DNA of 40,652 bases from IMG/VR virus record IMGVR_UViG_2579778674_000010; one strand, written 5' to 3'. The translations under genes were made by a program, and so were the position numbers. Origin of the DNA: a virus (lineage: Duplodnaviria > Heunggongvirae > Uroviricota > Caudoviricetes). This document shows, in pieces, positions 1,206 through 39,100 of this stretch. How positions within the stretch are numbered: the stretch's first letter is position 1; each line of letters begins with the position of its first letter. The notes under the pieces are model-generated. The model had not been told where the DNA came from. It did no database searches and was given only the letters and a program-made list of their open reading frames with translations.

Positions 1206-1543
1206 CAGATCACCACTTCGTCAAACTGACACGAAAAATCGGTATAGGTGATATGTTCTGTCGCTGACCACGTTCGACACACCACTCTGATTTTTCTGTT
1301 AATACCCGGCGGGCGCCAAAAAAAAGATTTATAGCCTTCATGCCGGGCTAAAAATTTTTCAAATGAATCACGTTCATTCGCCTCAACTTTGAAATCACAG
1401 GTGAAAACGCGCAGAGAATGATTAAGTCCATTTGGACTTCGTTGCTCATAACCATCGCCAAATCTTACAGTTTTTATCGATGGTTTATTTTCTGTTTTCA
1501 TTCCATCCTCTGGTAACCAGTGAAATTCTTCCGTATTAGCCAC
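1205..1543 (-). CDS. Minor tail protein M (lambda gpM-like)
   Basis: 112-aa ORF with an RFGDGYEQR motif and overall pattern matching lambda gpM. Position between tape measure and L. Overlaps the tape-measure stop. Confidence 0.8.
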
Positions 1544-4500
1544 TTAACATTCCCCCATCACGTCGCATATTTAACAGATTGCCCTGCACCCGCTGATCAA
1601 CCATCCCCATAAGTGCTTTTATTGCCTGAGGGCCAATCTCTCCATTCTGGCCGTCATTTTGAATAGTGATTTGGTATACAGGGGCATAGGTAATATCTCC
1701 GCCTCCATTACCACTTTTACTATTAATAGCTCTGACACCAAGAGAACCATCGGAAGTTCGTGTTAATGGCATAATGGCTTCCGGACCAGCCTCACCAAAA
1801 ACACCAGCCCCTCTTGCAAAAGCAAAAAATTGCGGGGAATCATAAATACCGTTCGAATACGTGTTCAATGACGGAGACTCATAAACACCGCCCTTTGCAT
1901 TCGGAATAAATTTACTAATAGCACTCCCGATAGTTCCTAAAATCCCCCCAGAAGAACTGTTACTAATGCTGTCGAAAATCCCAGTAATTGAAGCCTTTAA
2001 TGCTATTCGACTAAGATCCGAAATCACGGAAGTAGCGAAAGAACGAAAATTTGCCTTGCCTGTCGTGACAAAATCACCCAGCGCATCGGTCATTCCATCA
2101 AACATCTGAGTCGTGGTTGATTTTATCTGCTCACTGATATCCTTAGTGTCATCCAGCCAGTTATTGAATCCCTGGGAGGCACCACTAACCCAGTCTCCTG
2201 CCTGAATATCGAGCTGCTCGTTTTTCTGTCTGACAATTTCTTTTTCTCGTTCCAGAGCATCATTCAGAGCCTGCATTTTCTCCTGAAAAACATGATTTGA
2301 CATCCCACGGGATTTATCTGCATAGTCACGTTCAAGTTGCAGACGCTGATTGTTATATTCACGTTCAATCCGCAGTAATTCCTGCTGGCGTTGCTGATTT
2401 TTATCGCCAACCCCATAACCAGCAATCTGAATATCATACCCCTGTTGACGATTATCAATCGAAGCCTGCAATGAATCACGCCATGCAGCTATTTCGGCGG
2501 ATTCCTTGATTAGCCTGTTATTTTTTTCAATCGCAACATTTTTCTCCATCAACGCGGTTATTTCTTCCCGGTGTAAGAGAAGCGATTTCTGATCCTGGGT
2601 TAATTTCGATGACGGTCGTGACTCCAGGTCGGCAATCTGCTGACGCCACTTAACCAGTTCCTGTTCAGAGGAACTTAATTTAACGGTTAATTCAGTTTGT
2701 GAACTTAGTAACGCATTCTGTTGATTCAGATGATCAATCATTCGTTGGGCAGCATCATCCGAATAACCTTTCGCCTTTGGTTGCTTTGGATCTTTATAAC
2801 GCTCATTTATTTGAGCGATAAAATTATTATATTCTTCCTTTGAATACTGACTCTTTAGCTTTTCCAGTTTTGCAAGTTCACTAGCTCTCTGCTGCTCCCG
2901 GGTCTGATATTGTTTTGAAAAGGCATCTGCTCTCTGTCTGAGTTCAATTCCTTCCTGTTGTCGCTTGTTGTAATCGTTTATTGATGAATTTAGGACGTCC
3001 TGAGCAATTTTTTCTGCTTGAAGTACGCCCAATTGCTGCTTTAATCGTGCCAGCCTTTTATTTTGAGCTCCGCCATCTCCAATGCCACCTAACCCAAAAA
3101 CTCCGGGTCGGGTATTTTTTTCTATTTCATCAATTTGACGGAGAACATCTGAGATTTTTTGATCAAGGGAGGCCTCACGGCCAATGTCCAGCATGGAATC
3201 CCATGCCCATTTTGCGGAGTCTGCGACAGCTTTCCATGCAGTCTCAAGATAACCAAGATTTTCTTTAATCTGGTTGGTGCGCTGGATCATTGAGGATGAG
3301 TATGCTTCTGTCGCAATGCGGGCGGCCTCCTGCTGGTTCCCTTCATCCTGTAGCGCCTTAATCTGGTTATAAGTCGCAATTGTCAGAAAATGGTACTGAT
3401 CATTAAGTTTTGATATGGCACTGACAGGATCCTTTGCAATTTCATTGAAGTCATTAACCAGTTGTTCGGTTGATATTCCTGTTACTTCGCTCGTTTTTAC
3501 TATCGCTGTCGTCACTTGCTCCAGCGAACTGCTCGCTACCTTTCCCGAACGCACAAGCTGGTTTAATACTGCCGCCGCAGCGCCAGTTGTCGAATCAGCC
3601 GCATTCCCGGCACGTTGAGCTATATCGGCCAATTGCCCGCTGGTTGTCCCCAACTGATTTCCGGTAAGAATAAGAGATTTATTAAATTCGTCCTGCTCCT
3701 GAGAGCCTTTATAGTAAGCCAGTCCTAAGACCCCAACGGCTGCTGCGGCCAGGGTAAAAGGATTAATTAATCCCAGCACATAAGAACCTACACCTTTGAT
3801 CGCCGGGCCAATCCCACCGAACATATCTTTTAGCTGGCCGCCCTGCTGCATTAACACCATAAATGGCGACTGACCAGTGGACAACCCAACAACAATATCC
3901 GTCATTTGTGCAGGCAACATGCGCATAGCAAAAGCCGTTTGTTTTGCCGACATTCCGGTTTTGCTTAATTGTGATTGAGTAACCTCAAGCTCACTCCGCA
4001 TAGCACGAAGTTTTCCAGAAAGCTCCTCATACATTTCAGGAGAAAGCATCCCCTTAGCTTTTGCTTCATTGAGCTGTTTCTGTTGTTCTACCAGACGATT
4101 AAAAGCAGTTCCGACAGGATCAAGTTGAGCAATCAGACGTTGCAAAGCAACAACCTGTTCATCATGCGCTTTTGCTGCTTCTCGCTCTGCCTGAGCCTCT
4201 CCGGTAAGCTCTCGCCGTGTTTCCTGTATTTTTCGGCTATAATTCTCAAACTGAGAACCATTTATTTTCCCGGATGCAAACGCAGCATTAAGTTCATCAT
4301 GCTGTTGTTCAAGATTTCTTAGCGCCGCAGCCAGAGGGTCGATCTTGTCCAGCATTCTTTGAAAGGCCTGAGCCTGCGCTTCCTGCTGGGCGGCAGCAAG
4401 TTTTCCGGCCTTCTCGGCTTCTCTCTGCGCTTGCGCAACCCCGCTCAATTCCTCTGTGGTTTCATTAAGTTTACGGACAAGAAATTCATATTCTTCTTTA

Positions 4501-4769
4501 TCAATAAGCCCTTTATCGAAAAATTTCTTTAATTCAGAATAGCGTCGACCGACAGTATCAATTGCGGCACCAACTGGATCAATAGCTGCTTTTAATTTTG
4601 CGAGCGCGTTCTTCTCATCTTCTGTTGCCTTAGTCACTTTCCCTGCGCTATTTGCAGCAGTTTCCCCAGCCTGCGTCATTTTGACTAATGAGGAGGTCAG
4701 ATTGTCAGCATTATTTTTCGCTCCAGTGCTATCAATAATTATTGCGAGACGCGAGGTTTGCTCTGCCAT
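1536..4769 (-). CDS. Tail tape measure protein
   Basis: 1077-aa ORF, alanine/glutamine-rich coiled-coil N-terminal half with repeated modules, central hydrophobic/glycine-rich segment. Lies between the tail chaperone genes and M. AGGAG ribosome-binding site before the ATG. Confidence 0.85.
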
Positions 4770-4783
4770 TTATTAAAACTCCT

Positions 4784-4814
4784 GACAACAAAAAACCCAC
4801 CGCGAAGTGGGTTT
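4784..4814 (-). terminator. Intrinsic-terminator-like hairpin between the chaperone T region and tape measure
   Basis: Plus-strand aaacccac-cgcgaa-gtgggttt (8-bp stem) preceded by an A-run, so the minus-strand RNA has the hairpin followed by UUUUGUUGU. Confidence 0.5.
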
Positions 4815-4934
4815 CAGGCGACATAATAGTAGATATAGCGATTACGAGGCCACGCAATGCTTTTCTCCAGGAGCATCATCGATTTAATTAAAGACACCAT
4901 CACATCTCTGTAACAGAGTGTACGTAATTAACAA

Positions 4935-5256
4935 CTACACACACTGCTCCTGAAAATACTGGTCATCCAGTGCAAAGATCACTGCTTCAAATTCATCGCG
5001 CTCAATCAATACCGGATGAGTGGCTAAATATTCATTTATCTCTGTCAGAGATAAAGGCAAAGGCACCCCAGCCATTCCAGCATAACGTCGGGCACGGGAT
5101 ATTACCGAATAGGCGTACAACAACTCCTTAAGCACCGGGTCTATTTCTGGTTCCGGTATCGGTGGCAACCTGAGTTTTTCTCGCTTCCATCTTGCCTTTT
5201 CCCCCCTTTCTCCCCCGAACTCCGATAACCACCGCTGGGCAGCTATGGCTTTTTTA
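4935..5256 (-). CDS. Tail assembly chaperone T-region, expressed as a G-T fusion by -1 frameshift
   Basis: The 77-aa track ORF frame stays open upstream (without an ATG) to the slippery heptamer A-AAA-AAG (minus strand, plus 5249..5255) at the end of the G ORF. Reading in -1 from there gives ...KKAIAAQRWLSEFGGERGEKARWKREKLRLPPIPEPEIDPV... Confidence 0.6.
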
Positions 5257-5704
5257 TCGTATCCTGCTTCTGCTGCTCTTTACCCTGGGCGATGCTGGCT
5301 GCTTCTGCAAGGATCTGCCAGTACAACTCTGGATTCTGCTTAAGCAGCGCGATCCCTCGTTCTGCCGTATATTCCAGTGCAACCTCAACACCATTAACCA
5401 GTTCACCAACCCCTTTCCAGTCTTTCAGCAGATAACGAGCGGCATTATCAATGAGTAAATCATCAACAGAATCCACCTCGGAAACCTTTGAAATATCAAA
5501 CTCCTTCGTTCCGACGTGCAAACTGGCATCCATTTTCTCAATGTGGCGACGGATTAATGCATTACGGGAGCGATACTGATCGTTATCGCTGCTTGCCACC
5601 AACAGTTTTAACCCGTCTACAGGTTTTAAGTCCTTCATTGGCGTAAACCAGCGTTCTCCACCAATGATAATTTTCTGATTAAGAATAAACATCCATAACC
5701 TCAT
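5243..5704 (-). CDS. Tail assembly chaperone G-like
   Basis: 153-aa acidic ORF immediately downstream of the major tail gene, ending ...DTIKKP-stop with the slippery site in its last codons. An alternative start at the second Met (5692) is possible. Confidence 0.7.
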   Translation of the reverse strand: MRLWMFILNQKIIIGGERWFTPMKDLKPVDGLKLLVASSDNDQYRSRNALIRRHIEKMDASLHVGTKEFDISKVSEVDSVDDLLIDNAARYLLKDWKGVGELVNGVEVALEYTAERGIALLKQNPELYWQILAEAASIAQGKEQQKQDTIKKP

Positions 5705-5752: not shown

Positions 5753-6715
5753 TCAACTAATCGCCTCAGCACTGGCTTTTGCGATCACGGCAGCCGGGGA
5801 ATTTTTTTTTCTGGTTATCGTAGGTGCTTCATCTGCTGCGGTAATGCTCAATTGAACCTGGATAATGTCGCTATTACCCCCATCAGGCCATTCACCTGAC
5901 ACCTGAACCTTCGGGAAACTGAAAGTGTATGCCCCCTCTCCATTCGAAAGCGTGAAGCTGAACGGAACTGTTTCTCCAGTCAGTGTTTTACTCCAGATTT
6001 CCCACGCGGCTTTAGACCATGAAAGCGTCACCGTACCGGACGGTGTAAAAGTAGTCGGAATATTTGCTCCTGCATAAGGCGAGCCAGTCCCGATACAACG
6101 CTGTGTCTGGAGTTTGTTATCGAACTGAATATCAAAACTGTCGATACAAAAACCGTTACCTCCGGCAACACCATTCAGGCTTACTGCTGAAACCTCCTTA
6201 AACGAATAACGTAGCTTTCCTGCACTACCCACAGGTTCGCCTTTGATAAAATTCGTATCATCGGCCTTTGATTCCCAGTCCAGTCCGGCAAAGGTTACGG
6301 TCGCTGTAATATCGCCGTCGTTAGGGATCTGCATTTTCCATGAGCCAACCTGCGCTCCTCTGACGACAGAGGCAATTCCGACATCGGACGCATAGGTCGC
6401 CAGAGAAAATGTTATTCGCTCATTCCCCATTGTCAGAGAATCGCCTGACCATTCCGCGCCGAAACAGGATGCAAGAAAATCATCATGTTGACCCCAGCGA
6501 AATTTGGTACCAACATCACCGCCGACATCCACAGTGCCAGGCGTCGCCCCCTGAGCCATCCGGGAGCCACCAATCTCATTATTTTCGCCTTTATTCTGGG
6601 TGGGTTTTACTCCCCAGCTTGTGCGTTTTAATAAACTCCAGTCACCACTTGCTGGCGTAGTGCCTGCAACCGTCTCCCGGATAAATGCCGAGATAACCTT
6701 TGCACCTGAACTCAC
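5753..6715 (-). CDS. Major tail (tube) protein
   Basis: 320-aa ORF, Gly/Thr/Ser-rich beta-type composition, located just upstream of the chaperone and tape-measure genes. Assigned by position and composition, not by recalled sequence identity. Confidence 0.65.
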   Translation of the reverse strand: MSSGAKVISAFIRETVAGTTPASGDWSLLKRTSWGVKPTQNKGENNEIGGSRMAQGATPGTVDVGGDVGTKFRWGQHDDFLASCFGAEWSGDSLTMGNERITFSLATYASDVGIASVVRGAQVGSWKMQIPNDGDITATVTFAGLDWESKADDTNFIKGEPVGSAGKLRYSFKEVSAVSLNGVAGGNGFCIDSFDIQFDNKLQTQRCIGTGSPYAGANIPTTFTPSGTVTLSWSKAAWEIWSKTLTGETVPFSFTLSNGEGAYTFSFPKVQVSGEWPDGGNSDIIQVQLSITAADEAPTITRKKNSPAAVIAKASAEAIS

Positions 6716-6741: not shown

Positions 6742-7134
6742 CTAGAGCGCGCGATATGGAATTTGAAGATTAAGCTGGAACCAGCCATTCTTTTCGCCAA
6801 CGGCTATTGAGGAAACAGCCTGGTAACTGAGACGATCGTCATCCTGAAACTCAAACAGTTCCCGCAATTTATCGGCTGTCTCAGTAATGAGTTTTGAACC
6901 AGAACCTGCGGGGACAAATAACTGAATAATGATTATCCCCGTGCGATAAACAATCGGCCCCGCGCCAATTTCATTAACTCCAGCCTGCCCGGGAATATTA
7001 CTTAACCGCGCCCAGATTAACTTACCGGAAGGATCGAACGTTGGCGCGTTCGGATACAATACGTCTTTTCCATCAATAATCGTCTGTGCCGTCATTCTGG
7101 AAATAACCGTATTTCTGATTTCAGTAAACGTCAT
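6742..7134 (-). CDS. Small tail component (tail terminator or completion protein), start taken at MTFTEIR
   Basis: The track ORF 6742..7167 begins inside IS1; the first Met outside the element is at 7134 (MTFTEIRNTVISRM...). Position immediately upstream of the major tail gene. Confidence 0.5.
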   Translation of the reverse strand: MTFTEIRNTVISRMTAQTIIDGKDVLYPNAPTFDPSGKLIWARLSNIPGQAGVNEIGAGPIVYRTGIIIIQLFVPAGSGSKLITETADKLRELFEFQDDDRLSYQAVSSIAVGEKNGWFQLNLQIPYRAL

Positions 7135-7208
7135 TTGTAAGCCTGTAAAACACGGTAATGCTGCCAACTTACTGATTTAGTGTATGATGGTGATTTTAAG
7201 GTGCTTGC

Positions 7209-20551: not shown

Positions 20552-20893
20552 TTACTCCTTATGGGCACCGAACTTGTTACCGATGACCCTCATTGCCGCA
20601 CCACGAATAGCATCAACACCAATCAGCCCCACCCCACCACCAATGGCAACAGAAAGTGATTTAGGCCATCCGACATACTCAAGCGCGGATGCAAAGGTCA
20701 GCGTCAGAGCACCACAAAGCAGAATCTCAAGCGTTTTTCGTTTCCAGCCGCCGCCACAGCCAAAATAGGCAATGCGCAAACCAGCCATAATAATTGACAT
20801 AACCACTGCACCCAGCGGCGTATCTCCACGCCACCAACTTTGTAAGAGTTCCAGTAAGTCAGGCCAGGAATGAGGGGCATTGTGCATTTTCAT
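20552..20893 (-). CDS. Holin (class I-like, three predicted transmembrane segments) with MKM dual-start motif
   Basis: ATG at 20893 is preceded by GGAGGTGAGG; a second in-frame ATG lies two codons later (MKMH...) and an upstream GTG gives the track start. Three hydrophobic segments. Immediately upstream of the endolysin. Confidence 0.7.
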   Translation of the reverse strand: MKMHNAPHSWPDLLELLQSWWRGDTPLGAVVMSIIMAGLRIAYFGCGGGWKRKTLEILLCGALTLTFASALEYVGWPKSLSVAIGGGVGLIGVDAIRGAAMRVIGNKFGAHKE

Positions 20894-38712: not shown

Positions 38713-38919
38713 ATGACAAAAACTTTGAGATATGACGATGTTAAACCATGTCCGTTTTGTGGTTGTCCATCAGTAACGGTGAAAGACATTTCAGGATATT
38801 ACCGGGCAAAATGCAACGGATGCGAATCCCGAACTGGCTATGGTGGAAGTGAAAAAGAAGCGCTCGAAAGATGGAATAAACGAACCACTGAAAATATTAA
38901 TGGAGGCGTTCATGTATAA
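38713..38919 (+). CDS. ralR: RalR (Lar) restriction-alleviation protein
   Basis: Start taken at MTKTLRYDDVKPCPFCGCPSVTVKDISGYYRAKCNGCESRTGYGGSEKEALERWNKR... (Cys4 zinc-ribbon-like); position downstream of recT as in Rac. Confidence 0.75.
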   Translation: MTKTLRYDDVKPCPFCGCPSVTVKDISGYYRAKCNGCESRTGYGGSEKEALERWNKRTTENINGGVHV

Positions 38920-39100
38920 AATTACCGCTACAATTGAAAAGGAAGGTGGCACTCCTACTAACTGGACAAGATATTCAAAATCTAAACTAACGAAATCAGA
39001 ATGCGAAAAAATGCTCTCAGGTAAAAAAGAAGCAGGCGTTTCCAGAGAGCAGAAAGTAAAACTGATAAATTTTAATTGCGAGAAACTTCAGTCCTCGTGA
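38912..39100 (+). CDS. ydaC: YdaC (DUF1187) small protein
   Basis: Start taken at MYKITATIEKEGGTPTNWTRYSKSKLTKSECEKMLSGKKEAGVSREQKVKLINFN... with GGAGG upstream; overlaps the ralR 3-prime end. Confidence 0.7.
   Translation: MYKITATIEKEGGTPTNWTRYSKSKLTKSECEKMLSGKKEAGVSREQKVKLINFNCEKLQSS

Follow-up and report, generated by a model that had tools for sequence, protein, structure and literature searches.

A predicted programmed -1 frameshift site joins the ydaY and T frames of a tail assembly chaperone locus in a Rac-type Escherichia coli prophage

In the stretch of virus DNA analysed here (Caudoviricetes; IMG/VR record IMGVR_UViG_2579778674_000010; 40,652 nucleotides), which is in the following referred to as the window, a programmed -1 ribosomal frameshift very probably gives rise to two tail assembly chaperones that share one start codon. 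In the proposed mechanism, most ribosomes would translate the 149-aa protein G and stop at a UAG located one codon past the slippery heptamer A_AAA_AAG, and a small fraction, holding tRNA-Lys at both the AAA of the P site and the AAG of the A site, would slip back by one base. These slipped ribosomes would read GCC AUA GCU and onwards for 104 codons, yielding the 252-aa fusion protein GT. The process would proceed by tandem tRNA-Lys slippage from AAA-AAG to AAA-AAA, and the single tRNA-Lys of E. coli pairs better with AAA than with AAG (PMC5009743). If the lambda model applies here, the tape measure protein would be coated by G and by the G portion of GT, with the T portion bringing in the tail tube protein, and neither of the two chaperones would be part of the virion. 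A G/GT frameshift is established for lambda, P2, L5, TM4, phiC31, HK022 and HK97 (PMC5009743; PMC5313236).

Results

Gene G, a member of the YdaY family, occupies positions 5243..5692 of the minus strand and encodes a predicted tail assembly chaperone of 149 aa followed by a stop, as defined by the list of open reading frames, the translation and a match to PHROG 313. The listed ORF extends further upstream to an alternative ATG at 5704 (5243..5704, 153 aa). Since all G homologues start with M[FLI]I at the equivalent methionine and a GAGG is located 6 nt upstream of the ATG at 5692, this ATG is probably the true start, giving 149 aa. At the 3' end of G, the 0 frame reads ...CAG GAT ACG ATA AAA AAG CCA TAG, with the stop TAG at 5245..5243. 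The minus-strand sequence thus bears out the end AUA AAA AAG CCA UAG described in the original prediction, whose span of 5243-5260 for the site is correct. The heptamer A_AAA_AAG (5249..5255, minus strand) lies in the X_XXY_YYZ phase, AU[A AAA AAG] in the 0 frame, with its AAA and AAG both being 0-frame codons and a single codon (CCA) separating it from the G stop.

The -1 frame is closed upstream by a TAA at 5280..5282 (minus strand) and open from 5279. It contains just 10 open codons, without a start, ahead of the post-slip codon, and the heptamer sits within an 11-codon overlap of the two open frames. From there, the T segment (4935..5249, minus strand) extends over 104 codons of the -1 frame, the first being GCC (5249), and is closed by TAG (4937..4935). 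Of the suggestion that this frame would continue for about 105 codons past the slip, the open frame has stood, with an exact count of 104 sense codons, and the downstream 77-aa ORF (4935..5168), which had been proposed to be part of it, indeed shares the -1 frame with T. The predicted GT fusion comprises 148 + 104 = 252 aa, with ...QDTIKK of G meeting AIAAQRWLSEF... of T in the predicted junction peptide ...DTIKKAIAAQRWLSE.... The +1 frame was considered as a coding continuation and rejected, since it runs into a stop after 38 codons and lacks conservation.

The sequence AAAAAAG is found in 26 copies on both strands of the window (15.1 +/- 3.7 expected), at a frequency of about 3e-4 per position, and the probability of a chance in-phase heptamer within the overlap, which offers about 11 eligible in-phase positions, is about 0.004. 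A single one of the 26 copies, the one at the G/T site, lies in the X_XXY_YYZ phase of a long ORF (150 open 0-frame codons precede it) and is followed both by an early stop in the 0 frame and by a long open stretch in the -1 frame.

The G/T pair is placed between the genes of a tail tube and a tape measure protein, all on the minus strand, which supports the predicted G/GT arrangement next to the tape measure gene. Directly upstream of G resides the tail tube protein gene (5753..6715, minus strand; 320 aa; Pfam Phage_tube_2, E=2.3e-31; RefSeq 'phage tail tube protein'), and a tail terminator gene (6742..7167) lies ahead of the tube gene. The next gene downstream of T encodes a tape measure protein of 1077 aa (1536..4769, minus strand; Pfam TMP_2, E=1.1e-81, and Tape_meas_lam_C, E=3.9e-26; PHROG 24). 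It begins 165 nt past the T stop, and no ORF is found within the intervening gap (4770-4934). The presence of the RalA sRNA (38918..39096, minus strand; Rfam RF02694, 218 bits), the antitoxin of the RalR/RalA system of the Rac prophage, defines the window as a Rac-type E. coli prophage. Positions 4900-5594 are 100% identical to the ydaY region of E. coli K-12 genomes, beyond which the K-12 sequence abuts ynaK, and ydaY of K-12 is thus a copy of G that lacks the 5' end.

Between T and the tape measure gene, we find a terminator-like hairpin (4792..4815, minus strand), which consists of a 10-bp stem with a UUCG loop, GAAACCCAC-UUCG-CGGUGGGUUUU, followed by a U-run. A hairpin with U-run directly after T is also present in the relatives L004, L006, L016 and L025, in weaker form in L015, and equally in the unrelated Sakai prophage Sp9 (L013, ~20688-20715). 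The element at 4792-4815 is not part of the frameshift signal and might act as an internal late-operon terminator or as an RNA-stability element. Other relatives contain extra small ORFs between T and the tape measure gene (L003 at 1425-1900, L022 at 2016-2300, L017 and L019). One small ORF following T in relatives is lipoprotein-like (MKK...LLLSGC), and the T/tape measure junction seems to serve as a site where accessory genes insert.

Relatives carrying the locus in two frames were collected by tblastn with the fusion (Klebsiella, Erwinia, Pseudomonas and Acinetobacter phages), and scans of genomes and viral contigs added Citrobacter, Raoultella, Siccibacter, Pantoea, Scandinavium and 80 IMG/VR contigs, resulting in a comparative set of 14 diverged loci and 80 viral contigs. 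A_AAA_AAG is found in 80/80 of the IMG/VR relatives, whose G proteins are 79-100% identical, although such counts overstate the number of independent observations as the relatives are phylogenetically non-independent. At the homologous site of the 14 diverged loci, A_AAA_AAG is present in 11, G_GGA_AAG in two and C_GCA_AAG followed by TAA in one. G_GGA_AAG (GUG GGA AAG) is used in Raoultella, Pantoea and Acinetobacter phages, G_GAA_AAG in Pseudomonas phiPSA1-like phages and GCA AAG UAA in an Erwinia phage, and the A_AAG core and the AAG codon of the A site are invariant across relatives. The position of the G stop shifts among them (1, 7, 19 or 35 codons past the heptamer), with heptamer and T N-terminus remaining fixed. 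Where other loci read GUA AAA AAG, Raoultella and Pantoea contain GUG GGA AAG. Three bases have changed together from AAA to GGG. They include the synonymous third base of the preceding Val/Ile codon, which is in every case identical to the two bases that follow it. In E. coli reporters, A_AAA_AAG and G_GGA_AAG shift at 0.29% and 0.28% when no stimulator is present, at 4.3% and 3.8% with the IS911 stimulator and at 39% and 43% with that of IS3 (PMC4066793 Table S3). That the heptamer is either kept or swapped for G_GGA_AAG at the homologous site supports its designation as a programmed -1 site.

The change of the coding phase at the heptamer is reflected in the variability of the alignment. 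In 12 ungapped relatives, the mean column entropy upstream of the heptamer peaks at the third position of the 0 frame (1.19 bits vs 0.44 and 0.28 bits at the other two), and immediately downstream it peaks at the third position of the -1 frame (1.15 vs 0.49 and 0.45). When comparing T codons 1-38 to those of the Erwinia phage, 8, 9 and 31 changes are found at codon positions 1, 2 and 3, respectively, and 21 codon changes are synonymous and 11 non-synonymous. T is under purifying selection from Escherichia to Pantoea and Erwinia and remotely to Pseudomonas and Acinetobacter phages, isolated phages included. Its first 27 codons are conserved as protein across relatives, and no ATG, GTG or TTG occurs in the -1 frame between the upstream TAA and T codon 28. 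The switch of the coding phase at the heptamer and a T frame devoid of a conserved start of its own thus agree with the prediction that a slip joins the two frames.

Several loci deviate from this organisation. In three otherwise near-identical viral contigs, T is shortened to 61 (L046), 50 (L048) and 39 codons (L063), and these are presumably decaying prophage copies. In E. coli NB16F79_39920 (P0001), a 35-nt deletion between 10-nt direct repeats (GCAGAAGCAG), at about 5265-5315 of the window, places T in frame with G and results in a fused protein of 240 aa that does not involve a frameshift. Judged from its sequence, this variant would make GT only, and in lambda such a GT-only imbalance blocks tail assembly.

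Profile searches assign G to PHROG 313 'tail assembly chaperone' (E=4.9e-46, profile positions 15-149 of 258) and T to PHROG 1189 (E=1.4e-36), with a weak match of T to positions 173-246 of PHROG 313 (E=0.0097). With respect to Pfam Phage_TAC_18 (PF23812), T scores 20.7 bits, which is below the curated cutoff of 27 bits, and the same family is detected at E<0.01 in 6/13 T relatives. This sub-threshold hit was the only Pfam match of T, for which NCBIfam gave none, and G found no match in either Pfam or NCBIfam, with G homologues carrying the precomputed Pfam label PF27119.1.

About 1075 of 5426 complete E. coli genomes carry the G/T locus, and in these G is named "protein YdaY" or "phage-derived protein YdaY family protein". 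In the intact prophage record L001, the RefSeq model of YdaY covers 119 aa (CDS 5243-5602, starting at TTG 5602) and the ORF 149 aa. The start of this model, which matches the K-12 relic in size, looks too far downstream. T is either not called or annotated in RefSeq/GenBank as a separate 'hypothetical protein' of 66 or 61 aa. The T frame contains a strong Shine-Dalgarno-like AAGGAG (5124-5129, minus strand), which is spaced by 0 or 3 nt from two subsequent TTG codons that are not conserved in relatives, and which probably prompts gene-calling programs to begin a separate T ORF at this point. A frameshift annotation is absent from all inspected records of the YdaY family, and a literature search for ydaY in combination with frameshifting returned no relevant report. 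The frameshift site is new and unannotated, the G/GT mechanism itself being well established.

As to elements that could stimulate the shift, RNA folds of the 107 nt and 59 nt following the site are no better than those of shuffled sequences (z = -0.5 and +0.8), and a consensus fold of 10 relatives (alifold) amounts to -2.2 kcal/mol with 0 compensatory pairs. An AGGA located 6 nt upstream of the heptamer in most relatives, and absent in L004 and L023, is confounded with Gln/Lys-Glu/Asp codons. The site thus lacks the features of a stimulated cassette, which would contain a downstream stem-loop or pseudoknot at 5-8 nt and/or a Shine-Dalgarno-like element about 10 nt upstream. As no conserved stimulator was found, the efficiency of the shift is expected to be low, probably ranging from some tenths of a percent to a few percent, and it may be as low as the approximately 0.3% of the reporter lacking a stimulator. 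This range fits the G:GT ratio of roughly 30:1 described for lambda (PMC5009743).

Discussion

Our study has delineated the sequence anatomy and gene order of the G/T locus and the selection acting on its heptamer and its T frame across relatives, and we infer from sequence that the GT fusion is produced. The features by which a conserved G/GT frameshift is recognised at this level (Xu, Hendrix & Duda 2004), namely its position, an overlapping frame without its own start, an in-phase slip site and conservation, are all found at this locus.

The proximity to lambda (slip site G_GGA_AAG; Levin 1993; Xu, Hendrix & Duda 2004, 2013 and 2014, as reviewed in PMC5009743) is pronounced in the overlapping ORFs between the major tail and tape measure genes, in a second ORF that resides in the -1 frame and lacks its own start, in a heptamer that ends in A_AAG near the end of G, and, at the window locus, in the lack of a conserved RNA stimulator. 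Some relatives of the locus even use the exact heptamer of lambda, the window itself containing A_AAA_AAG. In contrast to lambda, the tube protein of the window belongs to Phage_tube_2, and a gap of 165 nt with a terminator-like hairpin precedes the tape measure gene. Neither G nor T matches lambda-type Pfam families, BLASTP yielded no alignment of the window G with the G protein of the lambda-like Sakai prophage Sp9 (ECs_1801), and hhalign assigned a probability of 0.7% to the comparison of the T profile with T of Sp9 (ECs_1802). As far as can be judged from these comparisons, the window pair represents the same arrangement as the lambda-like pairs, whose type is represented by Sp9, in a different protein family. 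The naming of G and T by analogy to lambda is therefore appropriate for the arrangement but does not extend to a sequence relation with the lambda-like pair of Sp9.

The Sakai pair is nevertheless instructive with respect to its organisation. Its gene ECs1801 (E. coli O157 Sakai Sp9) underlies cluster A_AAA_AAG_25, which is listed as 'tail assembly chaperone; [true]' (Sharma et al. 2014; PMC4066793 Table S4). As in the window, A_AAA_AAG is located at the very end of a prophage G-type gene, the T extension in the -1 frame covers about 102 codons and a hairpin with U-run precedes the tape measure gene, whereas the stop of ECs1801 directly follows AAG and one CCA codon intervenes in the window. 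We considered whether the window locus would be identical to this published cluster and rejected the assignment, as ECs1801 shares the heptamer but belongs to an unrelated G family. In the searched supplementary files of PMC4066793, a site of the YdaY family was not found among the prophage clusters. A homologous case is provided by the Acinetobacter phage vB_AbaS_TRS1 (NC_031098), whose T is a distant homologue of the window T (39% identity over 80 aa). This phage shows the same gene order, and its chaperone frameshift is already annotated as joined CDS TRS1_19. It contains an in-phase G_GGA_AAG in the overlap, with the 0-frame G running for about 27 codons past the slip, and its G is too diverged from that of the window for detection by tblastn. 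The identical heptamer A_AAA_AAG, with the same re-pairing of tRNA-Lys from AAG to AAA in the same host, is used by E. coli dnaX and by IS911/IS3 (PMC5009743). Sites of the dnaX/IS3 type reach 40-50% shifting with the help of a strong hairpin or pseudoknot on the downstream side and of an upstream element that resembles a Shine-Dalgarno sequence, at a distance of about 10 nt, whereas the window has no conserved downstream structure and solely a partly conserved AGGA 6 nt upstream.

Different scenarios could in principle account for two overlapping frames. T might be translated alone by initiation within the -1 frame (at TTG 5168, GTG 5135 or TTG 5120), with the heptamer being incidental. Such starts have been annotated, GTG 5135 in RefSeq and TTG 5120 in a phage record, leading to the hypothetical proteins of 66 and 61 aa, and AAGGAG (5129..5124) is found just before TTG 5123/5120. 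However, its spacing of 0 or 3 nt to the TTG codons is too short for a normal ribosome binding site, and the 27-43 codons upstream of the candidate starts evolve as coding sequence of the -1 frame. Of 14 relatives, only 2-3 have a start codon at the positions of the window's candidates (TTG 5168, GTG 5135 and TTG 5123/5120), and in two of the relatives, L022 and L025, no start-like codon precedes T codon 59, although the T protein is conserved from codon 1. Since independent initiation would also leave the coordinated change of the heptamer from AAA to GGG unexplained, we regard it as extremely unlikely. Equally at odds with the conservation of T is its interpretation as a dead frame in a defective prophage, where a fusion would neither be made nor needed. 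Although the Rac prophage of E. coli K-12 retains G only as a 5'-truncated copy, and truncated T frames are found in the viral contigs L046, L048 and L063, the genes of G, T, tube and tape measure protein are all intact in the window, and the purifying selection on T spans genera and includes isolated phages, leaving decay as an exceedingly improbable explanation.

The same GT protein would result from transcriptional slippage, if RNA polymerase added one A on the run of six consecutive adenines at the site, as a single extra A encodes an identical fusion. Efficient slippage of the E. coli RNA polymerase needs longer runs, and the sites G_GGA_AAG, G_GAA_AAG and GCA_AAG of relatives, with 3-4 adenines, would be too short, yet the two-frame arrangement is kept. 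Moreover, what the relatives share is the X_XXY_YYZ codon phase with AAG at the A site, a signature of the ribosome. Slippage of the polymerase as origin of the fusion is thus very unlikely, and a small contribution of this process in members with a run of six adenines is possible. The programmed ribosomal frameshift is, in contrast, reflected in the interchange of heptamers of equal efficiency by a coordinated change of three bases, which includes a synonymous position and points to direct selection on the frameshift signal.

It is conceivable, though we consider it quite unlikely, that the hairpin following T is a conserved attenuator or RNA-stability element, which together with the stimulator-less frameshift sets the stoichiometry between chaperones and tape measure protein. 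If true, it would add a transcriptional layer to a ratio that has hitherto been explained by frameshifting alone.

The recognition of a G/GT organisation at ydaY would correct two gene models, and its value lies mainly in annotation. The assignment of YdaY as a G-type tail chaperone with a 252-aa GT product would provide a function for a widespread gene of unknown function.
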